Part shown: positions 15,836 through 50,721 of the stretch, one piece after another
How the letters are laid out: the number at the start of each line of letters is the position of its first letter
How positions within the stretch are numbered: position 1 is the first letter of the stretch
Origin: Botryllus schlosseri
Lineage: Eukaryota
Direction: 5' to 3'
Assembly (NCBI GenBank): GCA_051294905.1
Contig: CM119373.1
Location: forward strand, 3,722,001-3,786,000
Length of the DNA stretch: 64,000 nt
Program-made: the position numbers and the translations under genes
Notes under the pieces: model-generated
Database searches by the model: none
What the model was told of the DNA's origin: nothing
What the model saw: only the letters and a program-made list of their open reading frames with translations

Positions 15836-20463
<4,628 letters not shown>

Positions 20464-26786: not shown

Positions 26787-29700
26787 TCAGCACAGTCTGC
26801 ACGATTTGCGGCAATTCCTGGGAACGTACGGGTAATCTCTGCCGTCACAGTACTTCTTCCATTGTGGGCAGTGCTTGTTCTTATCCCGACAATCTGAAAG
26901 CGAAATGTGGAATTAGCGTTTACGATATTGTGTGAAGGCACAGATAGCGCGCTACTGTAGGCTACTACAACTTCGATTGGAATGCATTAAAAAGCAGGCA
27001 TATTTCTATTGCCTACAACCTATATTAGAATTGGCGTAAGAGATAGACATTTTGAGAGCACCAACATTAGATTTCAGATAGTGTTGCCGCAAACGGCCAT
27101 AAGGTGTCGCTAAGACTCCTTCACACTCCCGCCAAGCAAGCGCAGGGGTATCCAGGACTGTCATACCACGTCGCAATTCAGTTTGGTGCACTGCACGACT
27201 GCACGTGCGTCGTGCGTTAGTGGTAGGATATTGTTTTACCTGATGGTATTAGTTTGGTTATTATAGTTCGGTGGTTTCCAAGCTTTTCCCACCCACGTAC
27301 TATTTCGAGGTTTTATGCAGTGCTTGCGTACCACCTACATTAGTTACGCGCTACGAAGGTGGTCAAAAATATTTTCACTGTGTTGAGCTGCCGAAGGCAG
27401 CCAAACAGAAAATAAACTTCCCTTCTAAGGCGCAGCATAAGATTTGTGTTGTGGATCCCTTTGGATTCTTATGGTCAAATATCTTTAAACGGAATTTGGT
27501 TAGGTAAGAATTCCAATGCTTTACGACTAGCTCTCTTCCACGTGGGCCGTCATTGTGGGATTGCCCCTAGCCACGGCGACGACCTTACCACGACGACGAC
27601 GGCTTGAAAATACTCACCGGGACTAATAACTCTCTCCGGTCGAGAAAAAAACAGAATCTACTCGCGTACCACCTGGAAGACCTTCGCGTACCACTATAGT
27701 GGTACGTGTACCACAGGTTGGCAACCACTGTTATAGTTGAATCATAGTGTCCCATATGGTGTCGACACAGGCAAATCTCACGCCTCAGTGAAATTGTATC
27801 ACTTCACAATTTCCATTTGGCTACAGGCAATTTGACGGTCATTTTTGACCGGCTTGCCGAGCATTAAATTTGGTAAAACGGGTATCAATCGAAAGCTGAC
27901 TCTGCACTGATTACGAAAATATAAATTTTATTCCGATCGTGGCCCTAGAACTCCCACAATCAGCCTCAAATTTTCATTGTTATGAAGATTGGCATTGGGA
28001 CGCAACATACACTAAACTACGCTAAACGCGATTAAAATTTGAAAAAAGTTGGTTTAAGTTTAAAAAATCGCTCTATAATTTATGTTCATTCACGAAATAG
28101 TTTTGGGTCCCCTTCAAGCTTTGCCCCGCTCCGATCGGGCGGTTTGTGGTGCGGCAGTTGCGGTCCTTCACAAAATGAATGAATCGAAAACGAATGATCC
28201 CGCAAACTTCGCATTTAGCGAGCCAGCTCGTAGTTGTAGCTCGCATGTCGTCACATGACACGGCTTGAACTTCAAGTCAAATGGAACATGTTCTCAGACG
28301 TTATGCTACTTCACGAAGTGCTGGATGAGTTTAGAATTTGATGTTTAATTTATTTTATCAATGGACAAGCCTTCAACATTTTGCATCTTGAAATTAAGGA
28401 ACAAAATTGTAATATACCTCGCGGACCGGCGGTTGAGAACCACTGATCTACACAAAACACCAGAGATGAGCGGATTTGAAATTTCTATGTCCTAATCCAA
28501 TCCCAATGCGAACCTTCAAATCCAAATCCAAATCCTAATCCATAACTTTTTCATATTCAAGTCCATGTCCAATCCTAATCCGATTCCAACTGGAACTTCA
28601 GAAAAATACTAATTTATGCAATGGAGGGATTCGAAAATTTTCTTTCACAACCAACGATTCACTTGATTCAAGATAACTTAGTAACCATAATTACATTAAT
28701 AACTGATCTGAATAAAGTTTGTCGCCATTCGCCACACGACATTTCAATCTCCCAGAAAATAGGTAAATCCAATCCAAATCCTGAACCGTTCTGAAAAAAA
28801 TGTCTAATCCAAATCCAATCCAAATCCGACAAAATTTCATAAATCCTGTTTTTTCAAAACCGAATCCTAATCCATGCTCATCTCTGCAACACACACGGAA
28901 CAAGTAGGCTACAAATGATTTTCCCTGCCCTGAGAGTGACATTGGTTATATGGTCGTAGTGTGTAAAATCACCTTTGTTTGTTTATATTGAGACGCAATG
29001 GTATTCTCCGAATTTATCTATATGATAATTTGAGCCTGGCCGATTATTATCGGTTCGCCGATAATATTGTGTCGAAATGACGATGAAAGAAATATCGGTA
29101 TCGTCCATTAGAGGTAAACAGATAAGAATTTGAAGTAGGCCCAACGCGTGAAAAAATATAATATAAAACTCTATAAGTGCTCTACGCTTATTCACATACT
29201 TGTTGATGGGCAAACTCCACAGCTTTTCTCGCAGTTCACAAGCATGTACTTTGGGTTACTCGAGCATTCTCCATTGTTCGCCCACGATCGACAGAACGTA
29301 TTCTTGTCGTAGCATTTACGAACCTTCGTTGGTCGACTGCACTTGCCGCAGCTTTTTTTACAGTAGACGTGCATGTATTTTGGGTTTTTGTTACATTCGC
29401 CGTCGGTGGCCCACGAATGACAGTACTTGTGATTATCTGTACAGGAGACGAGAGGTTTGGACGTAGTAGTTCTCGTGGTACGCGTTGTCGTGACAGGAGT
29501 TGTTGTCGTTGTAGTCGTTGAAGTAGTGGTAGTAGTAGTAGTAGTTGGGTTTGTTGTAGTATGCTCTGCCGTGGTTGTTGTCGCAGGAGCCGTAGTTGTC
29601 GTAGCAGCCGTAGTTGTTGTAGCAGCCGTAGTTGTCGTAGGAGCCGTAGTTGTCGTAGTAGGCGCAATCGTTGTTGTCGCGGTTGTAGTAGTAGTAGTAC

Positions 29701-32700
29701 TTGTTAGCTTGTCACATTCGTACATGGCGTTCAGCTGTCTGGCGTCCTCTACGGATAGTCCGTCTCTCTAAAAATTCATTTCATCTGAAATTCACTGGTC
29801 GTATAGATGTAGTGATAGATCCCGCGCTCATCATTTTACTTCCAGCTTTGTGTTATTGCCAAACCGACACATCGCCCCGTTGTTATCACTATACGGAGTA
29901 CTAACTAGACGCGTTATTCGGGACGTAATATCCATCGAAACAGTGTTTCACGTAACACCAGCAAGTGCTTCCCATGAGCACGATACAATTTTATAACCGT
30001 CAAAATAATTTTTTTTTGCCTTTGGAGAGACAGATATTAGGGTTGGAGGTGGGTTAGGGTCAAAGTTGGGGTTAGGGTATTCCAAGATTACGGTTGGGGA
30101 CGGGGTATTAGGGAAGAGGAAGGAGGGCTATTACGGTTGGATGTGGGTTAGGGTCAAAGTTGGGGTTAGGGTATTCCAAGATTAGGGTTGGGGAAGGGGG
30201 ATATTAAGGTTGGGGGAGGGGTATAAGAGTTGGATGCGGGTTAGGGTTAGGGTCAAAGTTGAGTTTGGGGTATCCCAAAATTAGGGTTTGGGAAGGGGAA
30301 TATTAGAGTTGGGGGAGGGGGGTCTTAGAGTTGGATGTGGGTTGGGATTAGGGTTAAAGTTGAGGTTAGGGTTTCCCCAACCCTAATTTCCCCCTCTCCC
30401 CCAACCCTACTCTTGGGATACCCTAACCCCAACTTTGACCCTAACCCACATCCAACCCTAATCTCCCTCGTTTCTCTTCCCTAATACCCCCCTCCCCCAA
30501 CCGTAATCTTGGGATACCCTAACCCCGACTTTGACCCTAACCCACATCCAACACCAATATATCCATTCCACCAACCCTAATATCCGTCTATTCAAATGAA
30601 GAAAAAAATATTTGGACGTTTATAAATTTATATCGTGTTCATGGGGAAACATTTACGGGTGTCATGGGGAACACTGTTTTGATCTCGGGCGTATATCGAA
30701 GAAGCGCCGTAAAATCCATCTAATTAACCGTACAGTGCATGACGAAAGATTCTATACCCTTGACTATTCAATATGGGAAACAGCTTTTGCCGCAATCTCC
30801 GTCTTAGAACTGCCTAAATTACCAAAGAACACGTTTCAGGGGATGGAAAACTAAATTTGAGAACCAGAAAATACTCTTCCGTCACGATTAATGTGAGGTG
30901 TCAGCTGTAAGATATGTTAGGTTGGCCCGTTACCAGAAAATTCGTGCTAGGATAAGTGTCATTGATCAATATATAGCCTTAGAATGTAATTGCGCTTGAG
31001 TAGAAATCTACATGACTACTTCTACTACATATAGTTTCAAGGTTGTTAGAGGTCAAGAACACGGGCGGACAACTTCTCCGGTCGACGGGCCTGAGGTACC
31101 GGGAAATAAAGTACTTGACCGGCCGAATTACAGAATCGACACATTAATCACGTATTTATCCACCTAAACAAAGAATAATTCGTATTTAATGTAAACTTCA
31201 AGTTTAAATCATAGAGACTAAACAGTATTTAAAGAATATATTAACCTATTGCACTTCAATAGCTGTTGAAATCAATCAGACATCTGTGGTCGTTCAAAGC
31301 TGTCTACAAGTTATTCGAACTGTGGTTGCATGTCACATGTACAAACCCTTGGTAAAGACTGCATGTGAACATCAACTATTTGTCCCTTTATCTTTCGCAG
31401 GTTGGCAAACTTGGATTCATTCTGTCACGCATAAAATTTGTCAATACTTTAAGATTTCATTTTCAGAGTAGAAACTGCCTGCGGGCCGTATGTTGCTCGC
31501 CCCATGGCCGAGAATCTTACTAATTTATACTTGATTTGAAAATTTCTACCCCTACAATCATACATGTCTTTGTGTAGAAATCTACGTCACTGCTTCTACT
31601 TCATAGACAACCATCATAAAAGGTCGGTTCTAGAATTAGGTATATCCCAGATCTAATACAAGGTCAAGCCGTTGTTCTAGACTCGATATGATACAGCGTG
31701 TATTACTGGAAATCTACGCAGCGCGATCAGTGCGAACCTGGCCGAGTTGCACTCCAGTTCTTTTTGGTATGATGGTCGCTGCGCCGTTGATGGAAAATGC
31801 AGTCCCGGAATAGTGCATTAGCGAGGCGTAATCGTACGGGGAATTGAAGGACTGGATTGCCGATACCCCTTGTACTTGGAAATTGTGCTGAAGCTCTGCA
31901 ATATCTCAATATATCAAAGAGTGTACGGGGGAGGGGTCCTGCTGACGGCGATACAGAGAGCGAGTCTTCATTTTCACCAAACCGAAATACATAATGAAAA
32001 GGCTTCGACTTGTACAAACTATTGGATTTTCTCAAAATGCCTAACTAGAACTAGAACGGACGGCCTTTAAAGATCGGGACAAACTAACTAAAACAGGTAT
32101 AACTAAGAACTGCAGACACGAATTACTGAATTGCAATTTACCAAAGAAATATTGATGATAGAGTCCGCATGTGCAAGGAGTTCGCGTTTAAAACGGGCGG
32201 GGTTCCGCCCCCCAAAAAACGCCCTGGCTAACTACCGTTAGTAGTGATGAATCTAAGTTAGCAATCGCAGCAAGAATATCGCACAGTGCGCCGATATCAC
32301 GATTACCGCCAAACGAAAACAAGTGGTTTCTAGTTGCTCTACAACTATTTTTTTGCATGCAGGACTAAAACTAGAACTATACTCAAAAAACCTGTATTAG
32401 CCGACCGTCAACCAGATTGGTAGTTTGTACAAATCTGTGAGCACCAGTACGTTTAATTATTCACGCACACATATATATAATTATTTGCATTATCCATCGA
32501 TTCAGCCAATAAATTCTAATTGATCCATCATCGGCATGCTTTGTATTCCCGCTTGCGAAGAATATCTTATCACCATTCGTAACCTAACGATGCCAGCCAT
32601 TCTTCCCGGTGAACATGTAGGTAGAGTGTGGACTTGCCCCATACCAATACAGCTATACCTATGGATGTCTTGTCCTTGAACGCAAACCACGTACTCTAAC

Positions 32701-35700
32701 TCTGTGGTTCTCAACCGCCCGTCAGTCAGTTATATTGGCATTTTATATGTTAGTTCCAGAATGCGTGAAGTCGGACGCTTTTCCATTAATTAGAGAAAGA
32801 AACATCAAAGATTAGATTCATTGAGAAGTGTGGAACGTATGTTCTTATGGAGACGCAATAGAGAGTTCATGATCTACTTTGGGCGCGCGTCACAATGTTG
32901 CTGTTAGTGTTACATGAAACAGTTTAAAAGTATAGCCAACAGCTGGTTTCGAGTTATATGTGACAGCTACGGAGACCTTTAAACAAAACTTCGTTAAATT
33001 CCAACAATGCAATTATGCAGTATATAAAAAGGCTAAAGCAGTCAGCAAATTTGCATTTCTTTCAAAGGATACCAGACAATCACGATAAAGCTAGTGACCT
33101 TTAACAGGACTTCTCGAGATTCGCCGTACAGAATCTTCAATAGAGCCCGTATAAATACCCGATTTCTAAAAGACATCAATATATGAAGTTTCCTGTATCA
33201 TATTTGAGTCTCATAGATTTTTCGAACTCGAATTAAGGGTTAATCTTGATTTCCGAAGGTTCACCGGTCCGCAACATTTGTTTTGAATTTTTACCGGTCC
33301 GCGAGGTTAAAAAGGCCGAGAACCAGCGGCTTTAACTTATAACTCTAATGTGAACTACATTAATGATTGTGCGTAGCTCACCTTTTTGAATGTTCCTCCA
33401 GTCGATTATAACGTAATCGTCCCTATCGAGACGGCTTTGTTCGTGCCAAAACCCAAGAGAATGCATGATTTCGTGGACGATTATCCCCACATGACCGCAG
33501 CCGTACCCGATCGATACCTGGTTGGTCAAAACAATTGGAAAGGAAATGCAACGATAGTGTACCGAACTTATTTAGAAGTTGTGAAGTAGTGCACTTGGTC
33601 TGTTTTTGTTTCTCGTTTATTGGGATATTCAGAAATTATTGACCTTTCTACTGGCGCAATAAGTAGGCTAATCAGTATTAATGGCGTTAGTTTAGGATTG
33701 TTTCTGCGTAAATTTGTAATATTTGCATTGCTAGTTAGGACAATGCGCGCAGCATGTGTACAGCATCTGTTGGACTGCATGGATTCCAAGGTAGGAGAAA
33801 GCTATCGAAACTGCATTCGATTCGGCTTAATTCGGAGACTTTGGTTCCGCTCACTTTTTGTCGAATCACGTGGAAAATCAATTGCACGTTTCATGGTTGT
33901 GCGTGAAGGCAGGCAATGCATTGAAAATACTGTACAGTTGGGTAATAAATACACTGAAGCTGCACTATGCTGCATAATTAGTACTGATCGCATAAAACGC
34001 ACCATATTTCAGGCTCGTTGCATTGTATGCTATTTCGATTCCAAACGATTCAACTAATACCATAGCACTGGTCAGTAGCATTTATTTGCTCCTTGTGCAC
34101 ATCGATACATTGATTCTGTGTAACTGTGATATCTTCCATATCTTCTCTTAATATTGCTGCTCCATGAATATTGCACTTTGCACGACATATTTTGCTATCC
34201 TGTTCAGTTGTCAGTTTATGACATTATTTTCTGTAGTTGTTAGTTTGTGACGTTATTTTCTTTGAACAACCATTTACTCTGGTACCGGTTGACTCGAAGA
34301 TCATTATGATCATATCACCGGTACCAGTCAATACCGATACCGAAGCACTGTTTGTTTGTTGCATCATGCAAGTTGCATGTTAATACTTTCATTTTGCCGT
34401 CATCGGTTGACGAAATAAATCTCTCTCTCTCTCTCTCTCAACAACGCGATGCCAGTGGGCGCCAGGTCGCCCGTCAGGACCAAATGAGTCGCCCGCGGTT
34501 ACAGCAACAAATATTAAAATGGGAGCTGTAAAGGTCGAAGCGGAGAAGCATGGCCTGAAAAACTTTTTTGACCTAAAAACTGACAAATATTTAGATACAA
34601 AATTTTTATTTTAACGAAATCTGTACCTATGAAGAATTCCAGTACTTACATCACGCATTATGGTAGAAATAATTAAAATTTATTGTAGATAAAGGAAGAA
34701 AAACCAGGGTTGTAATGACTCGAGTCATGACTCGAGTCCCCATTTTCTGGTGACTCAACTTGACTCGAGTCATTTTCTCAAAATACGGAAATGACTCGAC
34801 TCGAGTCAATCCGTGTATTGACTCGACTTGGACTCGAGTCATTGCGCATGACTCGAACCAAGTCATATGACTCGAGAGTCACGCGGCCAAGACTGACATT
34901 TCATTGTAACTTCGAAGAACAGTAATGTAAACACCCTACTGGGATTTCGTATATTGGTACTGCTACTTGAAAATGCGACCTAAGTTGCTGAAGATTACCC
35001 CTGGCGAGTGTCAGCCGAAAATATTCGGGTTTCATTTCAATATGAATATACTATTCAATTGCATACTGAAGCTCTGTACCTCCAAGATGCTCTGTTAAAA
35101 GCCAGGAAAATTAGTGTGTTATTAATGCGAATCATTCGATATCACCAAACAGGGTTATAAAAGTGGGTTTAGCAAGACTTTAACTTGTAACTGAGCAGTC
35201 AACACGATGACTTGGACACGGACTCGAGTCATAATACCACGACACGGACTAGAACCTCTGCTCGATGACTTGGACTCGGACTTGACTCGGTGGTGAATTG
35301 ATAATGACTCGACTTGACTCGAGTCAAAACTATAAAAGTGAGATTTACTTGTGACTCGGAGCTTTGCGACTTGGTTACAACCCTGCGAAAAATACTTTCC
35401 TACATTCTCGGGTATAAAGTGTCTGTCCTTACTAAGTAGCTTGCCAAGAATGGAGGAAAAACGTTCAACAGCAGCAGCCGTTGGCTGGCAACACCGAAGT
35501 TGTGCGTACATTGCTGGTGACACACCGTGTTGCTTTATTCTGACAGTGTTGTCTACATCGCAATTGTTCATCCTGCGCTCCTTGATATAAGAACCAGTAG
35601 TGAGCGGATATTTATTTCTGAGAATCCGAATCCGTCCGACAGCTCCATTCTCTGACCTTGACTGTGTAAAAAATTTTGACAATATTTCGACCTAACGCTA

Positions 35701-38700
35701 CAATTTTGAAATTTTTGAGACTTTTTTTGACTTGTCAAAAAAATCACCCCAGTCGTAACCTGACGTTAGGAATTGCGATCCTGCGTCTGAATTAAGTGGA
35801 TAATTGTCCGAACTCTACGTAGTTTTTGATACGATTTTAACTTGTATTCAGTTCCCATGCATTTCGGCTGAATAAACCGTCTGTCCGGGTATTCCGGTGT
35901 CCGAATTGAGCGGATTCGACTGTATGTAGCTCTTGGTATGTCATGGTAGTAATCGAAAATAACTTCTCTCTCTACACGACTCGAAGCATGACTTAAAACT
36001 CGATATCTCCCAGCGCTAAAAAATAATTCATGCTATTCACCACATTTCCGCGCGGTGACTTTCCAACTGGCGAAGAGCAGCCTTGTCCCCGTACGAATCG
36101 GAGATAGTACGTATGCCGCATGTCCTCTACGGCAGGCGTCAGCTGAATGCATGATTTCTCGGCCACGTGTGCGATCGCCTGTTGGAAATTCCTTGCTTCC
36201 GTATCAGCTGCACGAAGAACGGATGATAGTTGCTAGACCCCACGATTAGGGTTGTAATGAATTGAGTCTCGATTTTTGGTTACTCGACTTCACTCGGGTC
36301 ATTGTGCATGACTCGAGACTAGAACGGCCATGACAGTCATTTCATTGTAACTATATGGAGAATAGTATTCCGTCTATCAGTCCTGACACTTAGAAAATAG
36401 TGAGGTAAAATTATACTACGAATGCGCGCCATTCTATATCACTCGAGCAGAGTTGAAAAATTTGCGTCGAATCGGGCTGAACTCAAAACTGAACAGTGAA
36501 CATAATGCCTTGGACTCGGACTCGAGTCAAAATACTATGACTCGGACTCGACCCTCTACTAGCTGACTTGGACTCGGACTCGACTCGTTGGTGAATTGAA
36601 AATGACTCGCGTCAAAGCTATAAAAGTGGGTTTGAATCCGACCGAGGTCGACTTCAGAATTCCAATGATACTCAAGTGTTAGAGGTTTATCTAGGCTCCT
36701 CCTCGCCACCTCATTCGCGTAAGCGGTGTCTTACAAAAATCCTTGAAGTGGGCCGTGCTATAACTCGGCAGTTACGGAAAAAATGAAGAATATTGGCCTG
36801 GTGTAAATGACCATTGTAGTCGACAAACATCATGTATACCGCAAAAACAAAAACATAACCATCAGAAGACGTGTGCCAAGGCTTGAGTTATAAAAGTGCA
36901 AATGTTTGAACCACCTGAAATCAGCGTCATAATAGCACATATCCCATAAAAATTCGGACATTCTGACTCGCACAAATCGTCGCCGAGGCTTAAGACGCGC
37001 ATATTTAATTGCTCGACGCGTTGATCAGCGCGCGTATTGAATTGTTCACGACAGAGCAGGGAGTCGCTAATTAACAGTACTTCCGGACTCGTCGACAACG
37101 TTATCATACGCGTATAATCGTCAAAACGAGGAGATTGCATAATCTTTATTTACGCATGTAGGCTACTTAACCCTAACGAGTTGTTGCTATATTAGTAAAT
37201 TCGAAAAAAAAACGAAACCCCTCCTTTTTATTTCGAAACCGCCTCCTGATTTTTCGGCTGGCTGCACGCCTGATTAGTCATTGCATTTTGTGAGATGATT
37301 GAAGTATACAGATTGAGTCACTATTTATTCTGGATCGAGTAGCGAAAATGCAGATGCAGAGGATATTATATGATTGCAAAAGGTCGTTTTATCGCTCACA
37401 CACGCATAGAACTTCTAAACTACGCAGGTTACTGTGGCCCAGTCTATAGTTATTTGCGGAGAGAATTGTAAACGTCAGAAAGTCGAAACAAATGGATACG
37501 ATGCTATACGCAACCCACGTACGTATCCAAAACACAAAATGTTTGCTTACACCAATTTTTGACGAGTCATATAAATGAGGGTTATATTATTTTAGGATCC
37601 GAAAATGACGACCCTTTTCAAAAATTTTAAAAGCTCTAGTGCCGGAAGAGAAAAGTGGTGATTTCGAAATTTTTTGACCAATAGTACTGTGTTGACTAAG
37701 AAATGTCATTTTCCCATATTTACTCCCGAAATGCTTCTACGGATACTAGGGATGGTGCGAACCTCTGAAAGGTTCAGGTTCGAGTGAACGCGAACGTGAA
37801 CCTCTAGACGTCACGTAATGTCAGATTGCTAATTCCAACCCTACATTTCAGTGAAGTGATATATATTAATGTAGGGTACAGTCGCTACACGATACCTATA
37901 GCGACGACTCGGACCACATAATACCACAATGTGGAGGTAAATACTGACTGTTTAAACGTCGCCAAATGTATCAACTGGAGCAATCAACTGATATCATAAT
38001 GACATAAATCAAAATCAAAATTTTGATTATCAATAAAATAGTATTTACGGTGATCAATTCTTAATTATTTATTATAGGTTTATTTATTATGGGCACCACC
38101 GTAAAAACTATTTTATTCAAATCCAAATTTTTCGACGGCAATAACTCCGCTTCCAGTGGTTGGAATTGAACCGAATTTGGTGAACATCGTTTCTATAGAC
38201 AACCTAACACTTTAATGGGGCGAACAGAAAATTTTGAAATTTTTGTTTATCTATTTTTATATAATAAATAGAAACTGTCTTCTCCTGTAGCAATGCGGTT
38301 ACCAGCTGGAATTCAACCGAATTTAGTGTGTAGGCTTAAATTAGGTAACCTAACAATTTTATCAAGTAGCCAGTAAAATCTGAGAAAAATAGTCATTTTT
38401 GAACACCCTATTGTACATAATGTGCACGAAACCGATTGGTTATGACTTGAAATTGACATCTCCAAATTTCGCCCCGAGTCACGAGTCAATCCACATTTCT
38501 GAACCACGAGTCAAGTCAAGTCTTTGTTGCAAAGTGACTCGAGTCAAGTAAGTCACATGAAAATGTTGTCGAGTCTTCCTAAAGCTGTCGTGCAGTCACG
38601 TGTTTTGCATCCATCATTTGGTATTAGTTATGTATAATTTGGTGCCCGTTTCAATATGTACCATATCAACTATAACTCACAGAATGTAATTTCAGACGTG

Positions 38701-38863
38701 TCGTAGTATACAAGGTACTTGTCTCCAGACGGGTCGTCCTGAAAACGTTCCGCCATTCTGGCTCCGGCGCTGTAAGAGCCATCTGGCGTATTCCAGTTTG
38801 TCAGCCTCACTTGCGCGATGTTTATTGTTCGCTCGTTGAGCGAGATGTCCATTTCAAAAACTC
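26787..38863 (-). CDS. Astacin catalytic, Thr-rich and ShK exons (high-confidence core of the gene above)
   Basis: Six in-phase exons: GVFEMDISL..., ...SCIQLTP...GQGCSSPVG..., [33 protein letters not shown]..., ...[16 protein letters not shown]...[21 protein letters not shown] + Thr tract + 2 ShK, and terminal [35 protein letters not shown]. Confidence 0.93.
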
Positions 38864-41800
38864 CTGTAAATATCGGTATACAAACATATTCAACCGACTA
38901 TTACTGGGCTCTTCAACCGGGTGTATCGTATACACTCCAGGGTGTAGCGTAATTTTTAAAGGGTGTACCACGCAGATGGGGTGTACACTGTAGAGAAGGG
39001 TTGTTCAAAAATAACTTGTTTTTCTTAATTTCACACGCTTAGTGATAAAAATTGTCAGCTTGCCTAAAAAAAACGCTACACACCAAATTTCAGTCAATTC
39101 CGACCAGTAAAGGCCGTGCAATCTTGAATTGAAATTTCGATCATTTTTGAATTTGAAATGTCATTGTCAACGTCATGGTGTGTTGTGACGCGGTAACGGC
39201 CGACGCCAAAATGCTGATCTCCATAAATTAAGCGCTTTTTCGGGGTTAACTTACGAAATAATTTTGGACGCCCTTTGAGCTCGGGCCCCCTCCAATTGGG
39301 GGTTTTGAGATGCGCCAGTTTGCGGCCCTGTGTTTAGTGCTCCATACCGTCTTTGAATTTCAGCTCTCGGCATTATTTTTTGACATGCCCGTAGGCTGCG
39401 TAATCGCGGCATATTAATGAACAGGTTTCAAAGTAAACCAATTTCCGGCTCAGTTTACACAGCTTATGGTTTTATTCCACGCAGATATATATTTAAAACT
39501 AGGTTTTATGTTTTGAATGCCAAGCAACGGGCTCGCGGGCCGCACTTTGCCCAGGTCTGGTCTAGGCTATTATCTTCTTGATGTTTTTGTGGCATATACA
39601 CCGATTCACGATATACAGACTCACGATTTGTGCATATGCATACCATGAGTACATGATATGCATTTACCGCTGGAAAAGGAAGGTGCAGATATAACCTTGC
39701 GAGACTTTCTAAGTCTTGCACATCCCATCCATGCTGTACCGGTAACGCTGAGCGCCAAGTTGGGAAGTCATAGATACCAGAGTTACTCACCAGGTCGTTG
39801 GTCTTACCCGACTGGGGATTGACGCCATGACCCAGCGATCAGTAAGCCGGACCATGAACTACGTTGTACTTTTCAAAATTCAATGCGTAAAAGGTAAGTC
39901 TGCCTAAAAACTGGTCTTATGGGAGTGAAAGCACTCTGAAATACAACAACGTGAGTAAGTAGTGCCCGTGAAACTAACAGCTAAACCTTCATCAGTAGGC
40001 TACTCCGGAAATATAGAAGCAGACTTCGTTATTGACCATCCCTGTCGTATACTCCACTTTATTATGATGTTGCATCTCTCTATACTGCTGCGTTCTTGAT
40101 TGATGATATTTGTGTGATTATCTCTTACTACTATCTCTATCTCTCTAATAGTTTCCTCAAACGCATGATCTCGTCTTCTTGTTGTTGTGATAGTGCGACG
40201 TGCGTGCAAGAATGTATTAGCACCCACGTCTTGCGAGTTGTTGGAGCGATAGGGATTAGGCTAGTCGATGCGACTGAACTTTTGTATTTCAGCTTGATCA
40301 TTTACTACGGTATTTAACCTATGAATAAATGCAAAGTTGCACAATATTGAACGCTCATGCTACCATACCTCCGGTAGTCATGTTGCATTCACACATGAAG
40401 CATCCAAAATCATCGACGTTGTAAACGGCGCATCTGGTCTCGCCGCAGTCTGTGCGTGGGTTAACGGTGCAGGCCGGGATCGGATCGCTAACACCATCTG
40501 ACGGAATGTGATGGAGATTATTGGCGGTAAATATATATCTTGTGATATTCAAACTTGCGCATAATTAAACTAATTAGAGTGAAATAGTAATCTATTTCTA
40601 CTCTAATATGTGAAATGTTTATTTGCTCATATTTTAATTCTAGTCTAATTTCTGGTTTCCTGAAAATGCTACAGGGTATCTATATAAATATAGATTGTAT
40701 ATAAATTGTTTACAAAGTTAAAACTTTTTTTGCCACCTGCATTTCGTTTGTATCATAGATTTTGCACTGTTAGTGAACTTATCATTTGACATTTTACGGC
40801 GTGTAGCCTACTTCATAGGCCTACCGTCGTACACGGCGCATTTTCTGCTCATTGTGAATCGTGAACATTCAAATGAAACACATAGGTTGACGTGGTGTTA
40901 TGCTAAACGTACCGCAATATCACAACTGAAGCAAGACTGCGTGGTCATTGCATGATGGTTCTTACATCAAGAAGCGCATGATGAGAAATTGTGCTATAGA
41001 CACCATTGCCAGTATGAAGCAACACGGTTTGTCACTACGTTCTTTTTCCATTATTGGCAAGCTACTTTGTAAGGACTGACACACTATCTACCCGAGAATG
41101 TAGGAAAGTATCTGTCGATGTACTACAATCTTTTTCATTTCCACCATGATGTGTAATGTAACTACTGGAATTCTCCATAGGGCCAGATTTCGCTAAAATT
41201 AAGTTTTTTCGTGTTAAAATTTGTCAGTTTTTGAGGCAAAAAGTTTTTTTTCAGGCCAAACTACTTCGTAATGACAGACAGTTCCAACCAGAAATGAAGA
41301 TAAGTAGTACAATTCTAACATTATATGGGAAAACACCTACCGTAATTTGCTTATGTTAGGTCAAGTTTGGTCAAAATTAAGATTTTTAATGTCAAAAATT
41401 TGATTTTTTAGGTCAAAATCTTCCGTTTTTGAGGTCAAATAAAAAATCGCTCTAGTGTTTATTGGGCGCTGTATGCATACGTTATGTATGATCAAATCAC
41501 GTTTTCCCATAGTCTCTCGCAATGTGAGTTTATTCCTTGTAGAATGATCATAATGACCGTTCAATAATTAATTGTTTGCAAATAACGAATGATAACTAGG
41601 GCAATTTTTTTTGACCTAAAAAACGGAAGATTTTTACCTAAAAAATCTAAATTTTGACCTTTTTTTGACCTAAAAAAACTGAAATTTGACCAAATTTTGA
41701 CCTCACGTGTGCAAATTAGGTGATTTCGCATATAATGTTAAAATTGTACTACTTATCTTCATTTCTGGTTGGAACTGTCTGTCCTTACAAAGTAAATTGG

Positions 41801-44800
41801 CCTGAAAAAACGTTTTTGGCTCAAAAACTGACAGATTTCTACATGAAAAAACTAGTATTTTAACGAAATCTGGCCCTATGAAGAATTCCAGTAGTTACAT
41901 TACGTATTCTGGTGGAAATAATTAAAATTTGTTGTAGTCCAACGAAAGATCCTTTCCAGCATTATTGGGTAGAAAGTGTCTGTCCTTACTACGTAGCTTG
42001 CCAAGAACGGAGAAAGAACGTCCAACAGCAGCATTTGTTGGATGACAACACTCAAGCTGACAACACTGCTGGTGACAAACCGTGTTGCTTCATTCTGACA
42101 ATGTTGTCTATATCACAATTTTTCAGCTTGCGCTTCTTGATTTAAGAACCATGCAATGTCCAAGCAGTCTTGCTTCAGCTAGGATATTGCGGTACGTTGA
42201 CCATAAAACCATGTTACTATTTGTTTCATTTGACCATATATGATTCACAATGAGCAGACGATGGTCCGTTTACAACGGTAGGCCTATAAAGTAGGCTACA
42301 AGCTGTAAAATATCAAATGATAAGTTCACCGACAGCGCACAATCTACGATACAAACGAAATGCAGAGGTCAAAAAATGTTTGACTTTGTAAACAATTTTG
42401 ACAAATTTTGACCTAACGCTACAATTTTGACCTAATTTTGACTTTTTTTGACATGTCAAAAAAAAATTGCCCTAATGATAACACTATATTGCAGTGGTCG
42501 GGAACCTTTTTCGTCCGAAGAGCCATATTGGCCCTGTTTATTCCATCTCAACTCTCAAAGAGCCATACATTCCAATCAACTGTTACGTCACGATTGGAAT
42601 TCGTGACGTCATGGTAGCACGAATTCGAACTCACTACATGGGATTCCTCGTGTGCGCCACATTTTCTCTGTAGAAACTGGTATTTATTGTTCGAAAATAA
42701 AGCTCGAAACGAGAGGTAAGACGCAGACGCGCCAGGCCTCACCAATGATAACGTATGTAGCTTAGAATTTATTATAACTGTGACTGTCACACTGATTCCG
42801 AAAATATAAATACTGACATAACGTTGCGCTACACGCATATATTTTGGCGCCGTTACTACATATAACGTAGCGAACGTGGAACGTGGATATACCTATGGCG
42901 TTGTTTGTAATTCGAGTTTGGAATCGTTATAATGTCACATTCATAACAGTTCATTTCGCGCCGTAGAACACGAAGACAATGTGAATTTGAGAACTGCGTT
43001 ATGAAATGAGCGTTGCAAAGCCTGCTATGTTCTTTGATTCAACGTATCGCACAATTCAAGATTTCGATTCGGATACATCGCCAGGAGCTTTGAATCACCA
43101 GTCATTTCAATGGCATGGGTTCGAATCCCATTGCTGCCATCACGCCAGGATACAGAGCCTGTACTCCCTGTTGCACCACGAAACGATCTCGACACACGAT
43201 AAACGCTTATTACTGAAGAGACATCCTAACAGCACGAGTAGTCGTTATATAAGGCAACTAAATATACAGCGCAATCAGAGAACTAATCAATAGCCTGCCA
43301 ATTAACAGGAGCCGAGGTCCAAGGTTTGGCTCCAGTATAACACAAACAATACTGGTACTGGCGCATAGAATTCGCGAGTGATATTGGCCGGCGGCGTGAC
43401 TGTAACTTAAATTTTATTATTTTGAAGAGAGGGGGTCCGAGCCCCTAAACCTGAAGAAGGCATTGTCATTACCTCTCGAAGACATGCTTATACTGCCACG
43501 AGAATAACTGTTTTGGCCGTTTTGAAAATTTACCAACAAGTCGCTGCAATATTAATCAATTCAGAACAAAAATATATATTCGGCAAAGAGCCATATCTTA
43601 TACCCAAAAGAGCCATATATGGCTCGCGAGCCATAGGTTCCCGACCACTGCTATATTGTGTTCGTTTTTCTACGTTATAGGCTACATTTTCTTTATTTTA
43701 TGATCATGCAATGAATTACATATCAATCACGAATGAATTGCTAATTAGAGGATTGAGATTTGCCTTTTGGTATCGGTAAGTGTTCGAAAGATATAATTGC
43801 TTCAATATATCAATACATCAGTCTGTTAGATTATTGGAATGTGGTTTTACCCTGTATTCAAAGTCGAAAGATAAGCCATACGCACTCACCTGTTGGAGGT
43901 ATGGTCCTTGATGCTGAAAATATATTACAGTGATAAGTAATAATTTGCAACAGCCGAATTTGAGCCGTTTTCTCATGTGCGGACTGTATCAATTCATATA
44001 ATTATACACGGTTTTGCATCTGAAGCTCGCAACGACCATGGATGCAATTTATAATTGTTGATATTAACATTCGGCATGCGCAATCTAATCTACGGCTTAT
44101 AGTTATTTTGTAGAGATAGGGAGGTTCAAAGAAGAGTAGGCTACCATACTCACTCATTTCTTCGCAAGAGAAAAAGTCAATACGAAGACATCCCGCGCCG
44201 TGTTTAAGGACAGGCATAACTCTGACTAGTTTGGCGAATATTGGCATTGCGAAATCTTGCATTACGTCCGTTGTGTCGTTTTCATTACCGGTGAATATCT
44301 GTACACAAATTATTATCGATAACTTTTAATTCGCGGGTCAACCTTGTACAAAGTACCAATCCAAAGTTTTTTTTTCTAGTTCTAGTTGCTAATTTTGAAA
44401 TGTGAGTAGTTCCACTTCTAGTTCTAGTGGCGCATTAAAATATTTGTAAAACAACCAGATCTGAACTGGAACTGAATGGTGATACCGATATTTTGTTGTG
44501 TGGTGTTCTTGCGCCCATAACTATAGCTCGGAGTCGACACTATTGACAGTGGCATAGTTAGGGATGTGGTTTTAGGGGTCGAAACGTCACCCATTTCAAA
44601 CTGGAATTCCCGTCCATTTGACATATCGACTCTATCTGCAATATTTTTTAGATAATTTGGAATTCAGTCATTCGTGTCATCAGTTCTTAGTTAGTTGGTT
44701 ACGGCTTTTTAAAGGGCGTTAATTCTGCATATATTGGTCAATGAAGAAATATTTGGAATGTATATGTTCGAAGGTAAATAATGATAATGATATATTGTAA

Positions 44801-47800
44801 GAGTTGATCATAGCAAACACCGCCATTCTTTTACCTCTGATCTGGAATGATTTTTCGCAAAGTAATTTTGTCCGATATCATTTTCATAGTAGACGTTTAA
44901 GGTTTGTACCCAACTGCCGTCAAATCCGCCTATTTTGAATCCGCCAATCTTCGTAGGATGCATAAATTGAATCTGGTAGAACATAATATAGTATTATAAT
45001 ACAGAAATCACATATATAGTTCATATACAAAGTCGAAAAATACTGGTTTCCTCATTTTATACCCTTTTTGCATATTTTTCGAAATGTCTATATCTATCTC
45101 CGTGTATGTCCTTCATTCACACTGGGACGAGTGTAAATGCCGAATTAAGTAGGTTACCAGAATGCACCGGTGAATGAATTTGCATACATCAGTACTATCG
45201 TGAAAATATAGAAAATACAACCGTTAATTTACACTGTATACATTTGACGAGACAGTTGCAGCGCGTCAATATATATTGCATAATACAGTATCTTCATATT
45301 GAAATTAACCCGAATATTTTCGGCTGATAAATCGGTTTCAGTTTAATATGAATATATTATGCAAGTGTAAACATTGTGGGTTCGGTCTCTTCATACAATT
45401 ACATCCAGGGCCGTAACAGCACTTCGCCAGGCCCCCCCAAAACCTTGGTCTTCGGCCCCCCATATGTTGATGAACCGAACTTCTGGGGGGCTTCACCCCC
45501 CAGAACCCCCTCAGGCTGTTCGCTAATTACCGCTACTTACATATCATCTGCATTGAGGGCCGTTTAGTGGGTCAGCTTTTCTCGCAGAAACGCGCGAAGC
45601 GCGAAAAATTTCTTTAAATTCATGATTCAATAGGTCAAAAAGGTTCGGGAATTGCATATATGTTGCTGTCTATTTTTATCCTCTCTCTGCTCACGTAATC
45701 ACATTTACAGGTAGAGCTGAGTGAGGTGTGTTTGAAGAGGTATTACCCCTAAATTTTGTAATTAAACATCTTCGGGCGTATATCCGCTGGCAGGAACGAA
45801 ACAGCACTTCGTCAGGCCCAGCAAAAATCTTGGGTCTTGGGCTCCCATATGGTGATAAACCTACCCCACATCATCTTGTTCGCTTTTGCCACGACATGAG
45901 TGGTAGGCTACTGCCGAGTGAGCCACCGCGAAGCGCAAAAATTTTCGAAAATTCATGATAAAATCGGTGAATTGATCGGGAATTGCAAATATATTGCTAT
46001 AAACTTCTTGTCCTCTCAGCTCAGGTAATCAGATTTACCGGTAGAGCTGAGTGAGGTGTCTTGGAAACTGTATAGGGCCCGTTGGTATAAATCTTTAACA
46101 TGATTTCGTGACCTCCTGTCTGCTATATAAAAAAATATAGAATCGCCATAACGTAAGCTAGGAAACTAAAAGACGCACACAATTTCAAATTGGTATTTCT
46201 TCACTGGCATATAATTTTTCCCTGCGGGATGGTATTTGTCTTGTGAGGCTCAAATTGCCAAGACAGTATTTTGTATGTATAACGAAGTTTTCGTTCAGCA
46301 TTAGGGCAGTCCTTTTCGGCCAAGGTTTTCTCGCTGCCGATCGTTCTGGCACACTTCTTGGAGTCGCATGTTACATGGCCTACTTTATATGTCTTGGTGG
46401 GTCGTGGCGCAGTAATGGCCAACGCCGGTATGCCCATTTCTATAAATCCTGCGTATTTTTTCTTGGGGGAAGAGGCGCGAAAATTTTTTGAAAAAGTTGC
46501 ATAAATTTTCAAAAAATACTCTATAATTTATGCTAATTCACGAAATAATTTTGGGCCCCCTTCGAGCTCGCCCCCCCCCAATTGGGGGGTTTGGGGTGCG
46601 GCAGTTACGGGCCTGATTACATCATGATGAAGCCATCGGAATCTGGATAATGAGCAGGCAGCGACATTACCTCGAGATAGTTGCCATCGTTAGTAGCACA
46701 CCACGCAGAAGAAGTGTCAGCTAGACGGGACTGTAACGGCGTAGATGGCGGATGAGACGAGACTATTGGTTCCGAGCGAACATCGTCAGTAATCAGATAC
46801 TCTCCGCATTCTGTTTTAAAGCATTTGCACGATTAATATTGAGACAGAAGGAATTGTTGATATAACGGAAACGAGTTCGAACTTCGTAACAATCAAACTT
46901 CAGCGAGCATATATTGCTGAATTAACCTCGTGGTTTATACGATACGTGCTATTATATTAGGTCATACGTAATGATATGTTATAAGTTTATCTCTCTATTG
47001 CATATGCTGTATTGGCAGCTATATAATCTATCGCTGCAAGCAATACGAATAAGATTAAGATTCTAGTAAGGAATCCCGATAAGCATTTTACGACCCTTCC
47101 AACCTACGTTATTATAGCCTACTAACCATTTTATAAGGAATTTCATTCTCATATTATATAGCAGTTGTGCACCATATATATTCCTACATATCTCGGCTCT
47201 ACCAAGTTTTTATGTATCGGAGGTTTCTCTGGGTGCCTCATCGTTAACCTCACTGCCGTAGAAGTGTTTCAAAAGCCCAGAGTGAAGGTGAGCCGAGCCA
47301 AAAGTAGACCGCAAAGTTCAAGCTATGGTCGCATGAAAGACGAGCGTGACCGATGATGAAAGAGTGGGAGATTTGAAGACGTTGGAAACATTACAAGGCC
47401 TGGCAGTAGCCTTCCTTGAAAATTGAACGCGTAACCTTTTCTATGTATAGGTTGCCAAGAAAGGGTACATGGTATATAAAACGGACTACATATCAGAAAG
47501 GAAACCTCAAATCACAAGACTCATGTTGTACAGCTGTTGTGCACCCTTTATATTCCTATATATCTCAACTATCCAGTATCCTCCATTGATAATTGAACGC
47601 GTAACCTAGTCTGAGTAGTTTTTCAAGAAAGAGTATACGGACCGCCTACCATTTAGGAGATATAAAATCGGGAGACACATTTTAGACAGAGCTGGTCAAA
47701 GTATCGTTAGCATTACTAGTGTTGTAGATTAGGAAGTAATGCTATAGTTTTCTTACTTAATTACAGGGTGAAGTAGCGATTTGTAAGGCATTCGAAAACT

Positions 47801-50721
47801 AATTCAAATAGAAGTAATGAATAAAAGGTCTGAGAAGTACTCAAGTAAGTAAATTTGAAAAGACGATTATGCCAAGACCTCGCATACTTTTAATAGTAAA
47901 TCGGGTGTGGGTTATCTTCGAGATTGCAGGATGTATCTTCGCGACAACGTACACGCGGCAATTTTCGAAAATATAATCTGCCACCATGATACAGCAGTCA
48001 ATATGGTATTTTCACTCACAAAAGTGTTACAAATCAATCCCCAAACCACATTTTGCTTTACGGAGCGTAAACAGGAAATAGTTTTGCGTCAAAAAGTGTT
48101 GAAGAGCTTCTTGGAGGCACAGAACTTCAATATGCAATTGAATAGTCCATTCATATTGAAATGAGCCCGAATACTTTCGAGTGACCTTCGTCAGAGATGA
48201 TTGTCCGCAATTATTAGAGAATTGGAAAAAACATTGCATATCAACAATCGTCTCATAAAATATGACGTCACCGGCATGGAATTTCGAATAATCGGGGGAT
48301 GAGATCGCTTAAGCCCAATGTACTATTTTTTAGATGGTGCAGGAAGTCCTTCTGTAGGCACATACTGGGTTGGGGTATTTTGATAGAAGTCACCTCCAAG
48401 AAAGACGCCAACCAAGTCTAAAAATAGTATATTGAGCTGAAGTGCTCATCGCCCCGATTATTCGGAATTTCATGCCGGTGACGTCATATTTTTGATCTGA
48501 TTGTTGATATACAACGTTCTTTCCAATTCTATACTAGTTGCTGACGATTACCCCTGGCGAGCGTCAACCGATAATATTCGGGTTCATTCCAATATGAATA
48601 TATTATTCAAAAGGTGCTGAGTAGGCTACTATAGTGGAAGAATAGCCTGAAATCATCTACCACCCGAGTAAATCGTGCAAATTGGCTTGAATTGAGTACT
48701 ACGGACATGTAATAGTATTTCGGTACCAACCACCTTTCATTTGACACAGTCGACTCCGTTTAATTCGGACACCGGATAACCGTGACGACCGCTTTATCTG
48801 GATAAAATGCTTAGGAACGCAACAAACGCTATAATTGCACGTAAAAATCGACGGTTAATTCAAACACAGGCTCGCAATCCTTATCGTTAGGTTATTGCAC
48901 AATAAACAGTACTTCGTTCGTTTTAATACAATATGAGTGGTTATAGTGAAACAAAGGCTATCCATGCAGCAACGATCGACAATGAGCTCATACAAAGCCG
49001 TTTCAGATTCATTTTAATTGGATACAATTGCGTGCATCTTTTAGAACAGATTGGTACCGTAAAGTTTAGCAGAAAAATTGAAATTGCCCACCACGGTTAA
49101 GAAGTTGCCTTGACAGTTCGGAAGTTGGTTGCGTTGGTGGCGAATTCATAAAGGATTTGAACTCTAATACCGTATACGGTATTTGTTAAATGATTTGATA
49201 TCTAAAATACTGCACCACACAACTAACCTCAAGGTAAAACTAACGTACGTGCGCATTTAATTCGATGCGCGTCAATTAATGCAGTATAGTGCAGCTGCAG
49301 TACCGTAATTTGAATACCTCGTTTGCCTCTACGCACGACCATGAAGCGCACAGTTTATTTACCGCTTAACTCTTTCAAAAGTGAGAAAACCAAATTGTCT
49401 GAATTCAGCAGAGTCGACTGTAAATATGTTTGAATCGTTGTTCACTGCGAATGGCAAATAGAATGCGGGCGGGATTTAGGTGGATAATATCGTAGCTGGA
49501 TTCATGCAATCCTATGCACAGGTTATGATATTACTGTGGCAACTGTTGACGTCGCTCAGCGAATACTCCTGATCCGGGTCGTTGAGAATATCCATGCAGA
49601 TATCGCAACGAGACAGTCTGCAAGACGCGAGAAGCAGTCCAAGCACTATAAAATGAGATGCAGCTGTAATGGAACTCCTAGACTCATCACAGTTTATTAT
49701 AAGCATGCTGCGTTAATAGCTAAGTAGAGTAGAATAGTTTTAAAATTCCTTTCAATCATATTGTATATATAGAGGTGATAGTTTAGGCGTCCTTGCGTCG
49801 CTTCGATTCCTACCTGGCGACAGTGTCGAGATTTTAGTATGTTCAATCATATCACAATCAATCGATGGATGAATGGACAGAAGAATTGAACGAGAGACCA
49901 ACCAATCAAAATACATAACAACATACGGTAGTGATGGTGGTACAGAAAATATGCAATTATGCAAGCACAGTATTCGGTATTAGATAGGAATGATCGATAC
50001 GACCTTCAGGGTCAACTAGTCTGATCACACCCGCATCGAACAGGTACATTTGACTCTATACAGTCTGGCTGTAAAAATGTTAGTTAAAAAAAGAATAAGT
50101 AAACGATGGCAGAAAATGATCAATGAAGCCATGTTTGGGCGAGGTAGGGCAACAGTGATTAAATGCCTGGGCCATACACTCTCAGCGAAGACAGTGTGTG
50201 TTCACATCTAAAAGGGCGGTGCGCGAAAACACAACTTACCTATAGGAATTATATATCGCGGTTATAAATCCTACGGGCTTACGTAATACCTTCCTTAGTT
50301 TCTACGTACAAGCATGGTTTGGATTAAAATGTTGTGCTTGATTTATACCGCGGTGCAAGTCTGATAGTAGGTCCGGGTTTTATGAACCACGGGTGTATAT
50401 TCACACCCTTGAAATCACAGGTGGTACACGAGTGTAAATACCATCGTTTTTCGCTAGGAGTGTGCGGAGGTATTGGGATTGAGTTAAATATTTTGCTACC
50501 TACGACCTTTCGACCTGATGGCTACCCCTGTATCTGTCACGATACTTTTGTAATTGATGCTTGCATATTATATTTGTAGCATGGTATGTGCTATATGGAA
50601 GTTTGCATAACAGTGCATATGTACTATTTTAAATTCAAATCCCATTGCTGCTACTATTCTAACTACATGCTAAATATATATCTCTGCACTAATAAAACGT
50701 ACCGTATATCGGAGTCTTCAT
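26787..50721 (-). CDS. Secreted astacin (M12A) metalloprotease: SP, F5/8C discoidin, antistasin-like, pro-region, astacin, Thr-rich, 3x ShK (~711 aa)
   Basis: Exons 50721-50703, 49663-49535, 46810-46671, 44972-44835, 44298-44154, 43913-43890, 40497-40369, 40273-40228, 39811-39791, 39669-39644, 38863-38681, 36207-36041, 33517-33382, 31895-31738, 29767-29200, 26893-26787 give 2136 nt in frame. Motifs: [19 protein letters not shown] zinc signature, YDYASLMHY Met-turn, FEMDI Asp-switch-like motif, ShK CxxSCxxC, AATAAA at 26753-26748. The join across 40273-38863 is the least certain part. Confidence 0.75.
27269..27730. mobile_element. hAT (Buster-type) MITE
   Basis: TIR CGGTGGTTTCCAA / TTGGCAACCACTG; TSD TTATAGTT on both sides; GTACCAC motifs. 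Confidence 0.8.
28461..28886 (-). mobile_element. MITE with CAGAGATGAGC TIRs (second copy)
   Basis: Reverse complement of 14534-14966; TSD CAAAACAC / CAACACAC. Confidence 0.88.
29935..30683. mobile_element. Foldback element with head-to-head telomere-like (TTAGGG / CCCTAA) arrays
   Basis: ~100-bp outer arms are complementary (AAACAGTGTT...CCCATGAGCACGATA / TATCGTGTTCATGGG...AACACTGTTT). A G-rich array at 30037-30372 faces a C-rich array at 30373-30582. Confidence 0.8.
34706..35385. mobile_element. GACTCGAGTC-array MITE
   Basis: TIR CAGGGTTGTAA / TTACAACCCTG; relatives at 1-240 + 1090-1326, 21290-21378, 24520-24665, 36247-36625, 38440-38575 and 62775-62990. Confidence 0.82.
34983..35092 (+). 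mobile_element. Penelope-like family A terminal fragment nested in a MITE
   Basis: Matches 4665-4772 (GCTGAAGATTACCCCTGGCGAGTGTCAGCCGAAAATATTCGGG...CTGTACCTCCAAG). Confidence 0.75.
36677..36855 (+). mobile_element. 5'-truncated SINE (second family)
   Basis: Reverse-complement match to 58122-58305; ends in a CAAAAA-like tail. Confidence 0.65.
40369..50721 (-). CDS. Signal peptide, F5/8 type C (discoidin) and antistasin-like exons (5' half of the astacin gene, or a separate short gene)
   Basis: [26 protein letters not shown] is signal-peptide-like. [12 protein letters not shown]...YLEIQF...WVQTLNVYY...IFTGN...[11 protein letters not shown]...CLRIDFFSC matches the discoidin pattern. [23 protein letters not shown] matches the antistasin-like DxxGCxxCxC pattern. 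Confidence 0.85.
41597..42474 (-). mobile_element. hAT-derived non-autonomous element retaining hAT C-terminal remnants
   Basis: [33 protein letters not shown]. Relatives at 2285-2880, 34550-35750 ([25 protein letters not shown]) and, inverted, 40700-41455. Confidence 0.82.
42492..43650. mobile_element. hAT (Buster-type) non-autonomous element
   Basis: TIR CAGTGGTCGGGAACCT / AGGTTCCCGACCACTG; TSD CTATATTG on both sides; AGAGCCATA subterminal motifs. Confidence 0.9.
45406..46615. mobile_element. hAT-type non-autonomous element with an internal ~380-bp duplication
   Basis: TIR CAGGGCCGTAAC / GTTACGGGCCTG; TSD ATTACATC on both sides; related ends at ~28060-28170, 39250-39330 and 53001-53040. 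Confidence 0.85.
48100..48610. mobile_element. Inverted pair of Penelope-like family A 3' ends
   Basis: 48100-48400 (minus) and 48415-48610 (plus) each match 4500-4770; both hammerheads are degenerate. Confidence 0.78.
48747..49420. mobile_element. pogo/Tigger-like MITE
   Basis: Ends CAGTCGACTCCGTTTAATTCGGACA / TGTCTGAATTCAGCAGAGTCGACTG, followed by TA on the right; a related end lies near 35922. Confidence 0.65.

Follow-up and report, generated by a model that had tools for sequence, protein, structure and literature searches.

Gene structure and splicing

The window, by which we mean the whole 64-kb stretch of DNA analyzed, is intron-rich animal DNA of about 40% GC. On its minus strand lies a gene that we model as 13 exons between 50721 and 26787. 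All 12 introns are bounded by GT and AG, and the joined exons leave an open frame of 679 aa that runs without a break from an ATG at 50721 to a stop codon ending at 26787. The predicted protein comprises, in order, a signal-like peptide, a discoidin (F5/8C) domain, a six-cysteine antistasin-like module, a pro-segment, an astacin catalytic domain, a Thr-rich stalk, and three ShK domains. The exons, and the intron on which this architecture depends, are as follows.

Exon 1, 50703..50721, minus strand: 19 nt with the proposed start codon; the least certain exon; donor ranked among the best 3.4% of GT sites
Exon 2, 49535..49663, minus strand: hydrophobic signal-like stretch and short acidic segment; Cys29, Cys48
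Exon 3, 46671..46810, minus strand: N-terminal third of the discoidin domain; Cys51, Cys87
Exon 4, 44835..44972, minus strand: middle of the discoidin domain
Exon 5, 44154..44298, minus strand: C-terminal third of the discoidin domain; Cys179, Cys187
Exon 6, 43890..43913, minus strand: 24-nt Thr/Pro linker, phase 1-1; donor in the top 0.1%, acceptor in the top 0.6%
Exon 7, 40369..40497, minus strand: six-Cys antistasin-like module, phase 1-1; Cys208, 216, 221, 231, 234, and 236; donor in the top 2.2% of GT sites
Intron 7, 38864..40368, minus strand: 1505 nt, phase 1; decisive junction for the architecture; dispersed repeats inside
Exon 8, 38681..38863, minus strand: pro-segment; Asp247 in an FXGDI-like motif; candidate mature starts Ser273 (codon 38771) and Asn256 (38822)
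Exon 9, 36044..36207, minus strand: astacin catalytic domain; Cys322, Cys346; Pfam Astacin, E 2e-7
Exon 10, 33382..33517, minus strand: zinc motif HEXXHXXGXXH (His372-His382), Glu383 with XXRXDRD, Cys364; Pfam Astacin, E 4e-20
Exon 11, 31738..31895, minus strand: Met-turn SXMHY (Met429, Tyr431); Pfam Astacin, E 1e-9
Exon 12, 29200..29767, minus strand: end of the catalytic domain (Cys473), Thr-rich stalk of about 85 residues, two ShK domains; Pfam ShK, E 2e-18, in two stretches
Exon 13, 26787..26893, minus strand: third ShK domain and stop; Pfam ShK, E 2e-7; AATAAA 34 nt downstream

GC content exceeds that of both 100-nt flanks in 12 of the 13 exons, and exon 12 contains an array of 18-nt repeats. 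An alternative in-frame ATG is found directly 5' of exon 2, near 49704. The hydrophobic stretch of exon 2 is in frame, with its cleavage site judged by eye, and the codon use of this exon resembles that of the astacin exons to a degree that none of 1130 overlapping intron windows equals.

Splice sites were ranked with a leave-one-out matrix built from the sites of the model. The acceptors of exons 4, 5, and 6 are strong (top 1%). By an acceptor matrix of 11 sites the acceptor of exon 8 scores poorly, with 69% of AG sites as high, and that of exon 9 is similar at 57%. Phase-1 introns bound the discoidin block (phases 1-0-0-1), the linker, exon 7, and exon 8.

An earlier note on this DNA had proposed a 711-aa model in which every junction is joined in frame through GT-AG introns, one of them at 40228. 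The joining holds for 12 of 12 introns, but the route through 40228 does not: none of 7 AG-GT pairs entered in phase 1 was both stop-free and able to exit in phase 1, and a direct splice from 40369 to 38863 fits instead. The length was also wrong, the joined exons giving 679 aa. We rejected an exon ending at 40228 for this lack of a stop-free phase-1/phase-1 option and because the stretch is repeat-like, resembling a dispersed repeat (X3 contig 40167-40343, 10 differences). Also rejected was an extra exon of 99 nt, for which 3 candidates were found across the 12 introns, all without support.

The astacin and ShK domains

The gene encodes an astacin with ShK domains, and this much is certain. 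Exons 9, 10, and 11 each score above the Pfam Astacin cut-off in single-exon searches. Taking the definition of astacins (M12A) in the available text of PMC9848320 for the motif tests, we found HEXXHXXGXXH, followed by the family Glu and XXRXDRD, intact at residues 372-390, and the Met-turn SXMHY intact in exon 11. The catalytic-domain cysteines 322, 346, 364, and 473 are present and would be expected to pair as disulfides, and the three C-terminal ShK domains retain 18 of 18 cysteines across exons 12 and 13. By its motif content, the predicted protein is a catalytically intact ShK-astacin.

The closest known systems are the ShKT-astacins of MEROPS M12A, of which 3ShKT_BRABE (A0A6P5AEI0), 2ShKT_HALRO (D2CMF2), and C. 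elegans NAS-15 are examples in table S1 of PMC9848320. These have in common with the present gene a signal (putative in the latter), a pro-segment, the zinc motif with E-XXRXDRD, SXMHY, the four catalytic cysteines, and C-terminal ShK repeats. The present gene differs from them in about 215 extra residues that form two folded modules between the signal and the switch Asp, in a Met for the Gly of FXGDI, and, if Ser273 is the mature start, in a Phe at the usual place of Trp10.

The discoidin domain

All family searches were run exon by exon, and the discoidin scores accordingly apply to single exons and not to the whole split domain. Exon 5 matches the C-termini of discoidin domains in the PDB (factor V, E 2e-6; neuropilin-1, 6e-5; DDR2, 0.002), aligning to the C-terminal third of the discoidins of DDR1/DDR2, factor V, and neuropilin. 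Its Pfam match to F5_F8_type_C, at positions 86-124, falls below the cut-off (E 0.36). No single discoidin exon passes the Pfam cut-off, and exon 3 and exon 4, each searched alone, gave no Pfam or PDB match. Exon 4 falls with ESM Atlas clusters of F5/8 type C at 0.87 and 0.85, both under 0.9 and serving as leads only, while exon 3 beyond its Cys pair has what we take to be a motif resemblance to discoidin. Cys51, 87, 179, and 187 match the pattern of Cys30, 73, 177, and 185 in DDR2, for which the available text of PMC2807035 gives disulfides Cys30-Cys185 and Cys73-Cys177, and a like pairing would be expected here. Since the four-Cys pattern mirrors that of DDR2, exons 3 and 5 appear to be parts of one domain. 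We regard the discoidin identity as well supported by these sequence comparisons. The domain is shorter than the DDR2 type, at 136 versus 155 residues from first to last Cys, and its loops are correspondingly reduced.

The discoidin exons (46810-44154, minus strand) have a third-position GC of 0.40, against 0.56-0.58 in the rest of the gene. In counts this is 53/133 versus 177/314 in the astacin exons (p 0.002), although at fourfold sites alone the difference is not significant (p 0.28). Exons 2 and 7 together are like the astacin exons in this respect (47/81 versus 177/314, p 0.8). The low value may hint at a later arrival or a different history of the discoidin exons, or at little use of them.

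Little use is also what would be seen if the main mRNA skipped the discoidin block, and perhaps exon 7, leaving a near-ordinary protein of signal, pro-segment, astacin, and three ShK domains with the discoidin either as a cassette of minor importance or as an insertion that is recent and little used. Every such skip would be in frame, since phase 1 is shared by the end of exon 2 and the starts of exons 6, 7, and 8. The third-position GC and the failure of exons 3 and 4 to match a family on their own would agree with it, and signal-PRO-CD-ShK3 is a common architecture. However, none of the three discoidin exons is damaged, all four cysteines are kept, and the acceptors of exons 4, 5, and 6 are strong; the GC difference is not significant at fourfold sites, and skipping is compatible with the full form as one isoform. 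We consider it unlikely that the skipped form is the main product.

The antistasin-like module

The six cysteines of exon 7 are spaced 7-4-9-2-1 and carry a D-x-x-G-C tail, and across all six frames of the 64-kb window the motif D-x-x-G-C-x-x-C-x-C is found a single time, in this exon. Antistasin-type inhibitors form MEROPS family I15. Poecistasin, hirustasin, and guamerin have a six-Cys cluster and D-x-x-G-C tail as in exon 7; that of poecistasin is spaced 4-3-10-3-1, and its P1 residue, Arg27, directly follows the second Cys, according to the available text of PMC6265900. Exon 7 found no Pfam family, PF02822 included, at E up to 1 or 10 in searches whose HMMER filters drop weak matches. It had no match in the PDB and no usable match in the Atlas, and a fold search gave nothing at E up to 0.001, the single-sequence model having a pLDDT of 56. 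We take the label from the Cys spacing and call the module antistasin-like, which would not make it an antistasin inhibitor.

It had been suggested in the earlier note that the module could restrain the activating serine protease. The idea of a working canonical inhibitor that damps the activator of the zymogen is one about function, and the one-gene model can accommodate it. The six-Cys spacing and tail do resemble the C-terminal subdomain of poecistasin, the module lies 11 residues ahead of the switch Asp, and an Arg lies three residues past the usual P1 slot. The P1-equivalent slot itself, however, is Gly217, whereas the residue is Arg, Lys, or Met in the leech inhibitors treated in the available text of PMC6265900, and the idea is weak on that account. 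In addition, the reactive loop has 4 residues and not the 3 of poecistasin, the four-Cys N-terminal subdomain of antistasin-type inhibitors is missing, and the Pfam Antistasin family is not matched even at E 10. These features speak against the suggestion, and we hold an inhibitory role to be very improbable.

The pro-segment and the mature N-terminus

The motif around Asp247 resembles FXGDI but has Met where Gly is conserved, and Met-Asp-Ile is found in both relatives that reach the motif. These come from an exhaustive search with exon 8, which returned 6 proteins, including 3 exon-sized relatives that are 88, 67, and 57-63% identical. The other 3 matches were unrelated repeat proteins and were dropped. 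Comparison of exon 8, and of its alignment, with the PDB brought up no astacin.

The exon 8 variant (38863-38681, minus strand), with its Met in the Asp switch and a conserved segment at the proposed mature start, is common to the three relatives. Such a shared variant would mark a distinct astacin subfamily.

Two residues are candidates for the mature start. With Ser273, Phe282 comes at +9, and the start opens a block that is almost wholly invariant across all 4 sequences. With Asn256, the corresponding residue is Trp265, which is kept in 2 of the 4 sequences, and a long insertion is required. In the mature form of meprin beta, position 10 is Trp. Ahead of the first zinc His there would be 99 residues from Ser273 and 116 from Asn256, compared with 90 in meprin beta and 95 in P0003. 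The distance from the Asp to the mature start favors Asn256, at 9 residues versus 26 for Ser273 and 10 in meprin beta. On these comparisons the mature start is most likely Ser273. It is preceded by Tyr272, and the lack of a dibasic site before it suggests stepwise trimming rather than furin.

One transcript or more

Twenty-four sequencing runs were listed for the locus, and 4 of these were aligned to 31001-51000, where their signal came from repeats. The 9.5-kb run query consisted mostly of intron, and the small matching shares likewise came from repeats. For the two raw runs, which were covered to about 6% and 13% of their reads, 98-99% of the placed reads ran on unlike the stretch. All 4 runs had zero depth in the bin containing exons 5-6, as did both raw runs in the exon 2 bin. 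No RNA reads covered the exons tested. Among the joints for the 4 runs across 31001-51000, the 15 listed include no intron of the model, a further 368 lying beyond the listing, and the X1 pieces that overlap exons 2 and 11 are unspliced.

Homologue searches covered collections that are seemingly poor in animal proteins. Within them exon 5 gave no candidate, exon 8 gave 0 of 57 candidates, and exon 10 gave 4 candidates, of which 3 were accepted, the Pfam lists of these showing no N-terminal module; a full-length relative was not found with these three exons. A metagenome scan returned 6 short weak matches.

The N-terminal modules and the astacin could alternatively belong to two units: a short secreted discoidin and antistasin-like protein that ends by read-through from exon 7, and an astacin-ShK gene of its own whose first exon or exons would lie in intron 7. 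Read-through into intron 7 meets a stop 12 nt beyond the donor of exon 7; against our expectation, an AATAAA follows after about 290 nt more. The background density of AATAAA is 0.92 per kb, which gives about a 1 in 4 chance of one so placed. With lax filters, intron 7 also yields six signal-like two-exon chains that might supply a start for the astacin. However, three other long introns yield 31-565 such chains, which suggests that they arise by chance, and the same lax enumeration of signal exons gave 700 chains in a control region. Of the six, four begin 10 nt past the donor of exon 7, while two begin inside a repeat at 39577-39682. When the splice filters are made stricter, intron 7 offers 4 single-exon starts, and 0 of these are hydrophobic. 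The 1.5 kb of partly repeated DNA would have to accommodate a 3' end, a promoter, and signal exons, and the exon 7 donor is strong and in the right phase. We judge two separate units to be a quite unlikely arrangement. The statement in the earlier note that the astacin exons have no signal exon of their own agrees with the strict filters but, given the six lax chains, holds only tentatively.

We regard a single gene with the full N-terminal architecture as its main product as the probable reading of the sequence.

Comparison with known architectures

For comparison we used all 149 rows, head row included, of table S1 in PMC9848320 (about 148 astacins), in which signal-PRO-CD-ShKn is common. 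One entry has a domain ahead of PRO, a C-type lectin in Saccoglossus, and none has the present order. FA58C appears in one row, at the C-terminus of an amphioxus protein; two rows, both for a single fly protein, place TPRs between PRO and CD; and antistasin appears in the domain key but in no row.

The Saccoglossus protein, SMD_SACKO (A0A0U2STI1), is arranged as S-CLEC-PRO-CD-SMD-VWF-CLEC and, as here, has a binding domain ahead of the pro-segment. It differs from the present gene in that this domain is a C-type lectin and not a discoidin, and it has neither an antistasin-like module nor ShK. The amphioxus FA58C astacin of the same table combines astacin, ShK, and FA58C in one chain, as here, but its FA58C is C-terminal and would stay with the active enzyme. 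More generally, the available text of PMC6409789 describes M12 domains as combining with modules placed N-terminally or C-terminally, about 900 carrying C-terminal ShK.

These precedents bear on two points of the earlier note. That accessory domains of astacins are C-terminal holds nearly always, the Saccoglossus entry being an exception. The architecture, which had not been recognized, is indeed unusual, and its order is absent from table S1 of PMC9848320, but N-terminal modules as such have precedent in SMD_SACKO and in the text seen of PMC6409789.

A search of the open literature found no paper in which astacin, discoidin, and antistasin occur together. Astacin and antistasin are both named in 11 papers; in the available text of one of these, PMC9382459, they are separate proteins, and no such joint protein is described in the portions available of that paper or of PMC7851590, PMC1867822, PMC11673157, and PMC12652894. 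The architecture may already exist as an automatic annotation in a catalogue. Overall, this is a real astacin-ShK gene of an already known family, with a probably genuine and unusual N-terminal extension.

Proposed role of the N-terminal extension

We propose that the single gene encodes a secreted zymogen of the ShK-astacin type with an enlarged N-terminal region. By analogy with astacin biochemistry (available text of PMC9848320), Asp247 would block the zinc of the latent enzyme. Cleavage, likeliest after Tyr272 and before Ser273, would release a new N-terminus that docks on Glu383, as in other astacins. The discoidin domain may tether the latent enzyme to a ligand in the matrix, on a glycan, or on the cell surface, so that activation would free the protease at that place. 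The antistasin-like module would be a structural or protein-binding spacer and not an inhibitor.

Both modules would be expected to leave with the pro-part on activation, since they lie ahead of the pro-segment and the cysteines of each appear to be paired internally. Even numbers of cysteines in each module and in the catalytic domain point to the same shedding, with the count for exon 2 depending on its cleavage site. For that reason an unpaired N-terminal Cys that tethers the pro-part may be conceivable. The earlier note had likewise expected the binding and cysteine-rich modules to be released on activation, and this would follow from their position ahead of the pro-segment. The active enzyme would keep the Thr-rich stalk and the ShK domains.

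Phase-1 intron boundaries are the usual signature of exon shuffling. The two modules probably entered in this way, into the intron of phase 1 that follows the signal peptide.

The accessory domains of astacins, nearly always C-terminal, steer the active enzyme. Folded modules that precede the pro-segment are restricted to acting on the latent form or, once released, as a fragment. If true, the proposal would describe a means of positioning a zymogen and of setting the enzyme free when it is activated. A further-reaching version, which we offer tentatively and hold to be doubtful, is a lineage-specific astacin subfamily with a discoidin-anchored zymogen, a modified Asp switch, a free protease after maturation at a non-basic Tyr-Ser site, and a shed fragment that later serves as ligand or inhibitor. 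The variant pro-segment and N-terminus conserved in three relatives would be of interest to metzincin specialists. The wider impact is limited, as invertebrate astacins shuffle their domains freely and one N-terminal precedent is already catalogued; known pro-regions range from 34 to 486 residues (available text of PMC9848320).

Neighboring elements in the window

The following elements lie around the gene or within its introns.

59458-59063 and 57960-57853, minus strand: remnant of a tandem paralogue resembling exons 12 and 13
About 56906-54011, minus strand: intact-looking hAT DNA transposon, between the paralogue remnant and the astacin gene
40721-42381: nested inverted repeats (MITE-like fold-back element), half of intron 6
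About 30000-30610: palindromic element in intron 11
About 19215-20460, plus strand: exons of ribosomal protein uS11 (RPS14); Pfam Ribosomal_S11, E 2e-10
2239-1333, minus strand: exons with a weak Helicase_PWI match, E 0.009

The paralogue remnant comprises the end of a catalytic helix, a last Cys replaced by Gly, and two ShK domains; its exon 13-like part is 65% identical, and an AATAAA lies 59 nt past the stop. The 64-kb window yielded no catalytic exons belonging to this remnant. The hAT element has an ORF of 696 codons at 56419-54332, with weak matches to the hAT dimerisation domain and DUF4371, and its ends show a 12-bp terminal inverted repeat and an 8-bp target duplication. The exons at 2239-1333 presumably resemble the N-terminus of an ASCC3/Brr2-type helicase. 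The palindromic element of intron 11 is made up of units of about 95 bp rich in TTAGGG-like words and has terminal inverted repeats.
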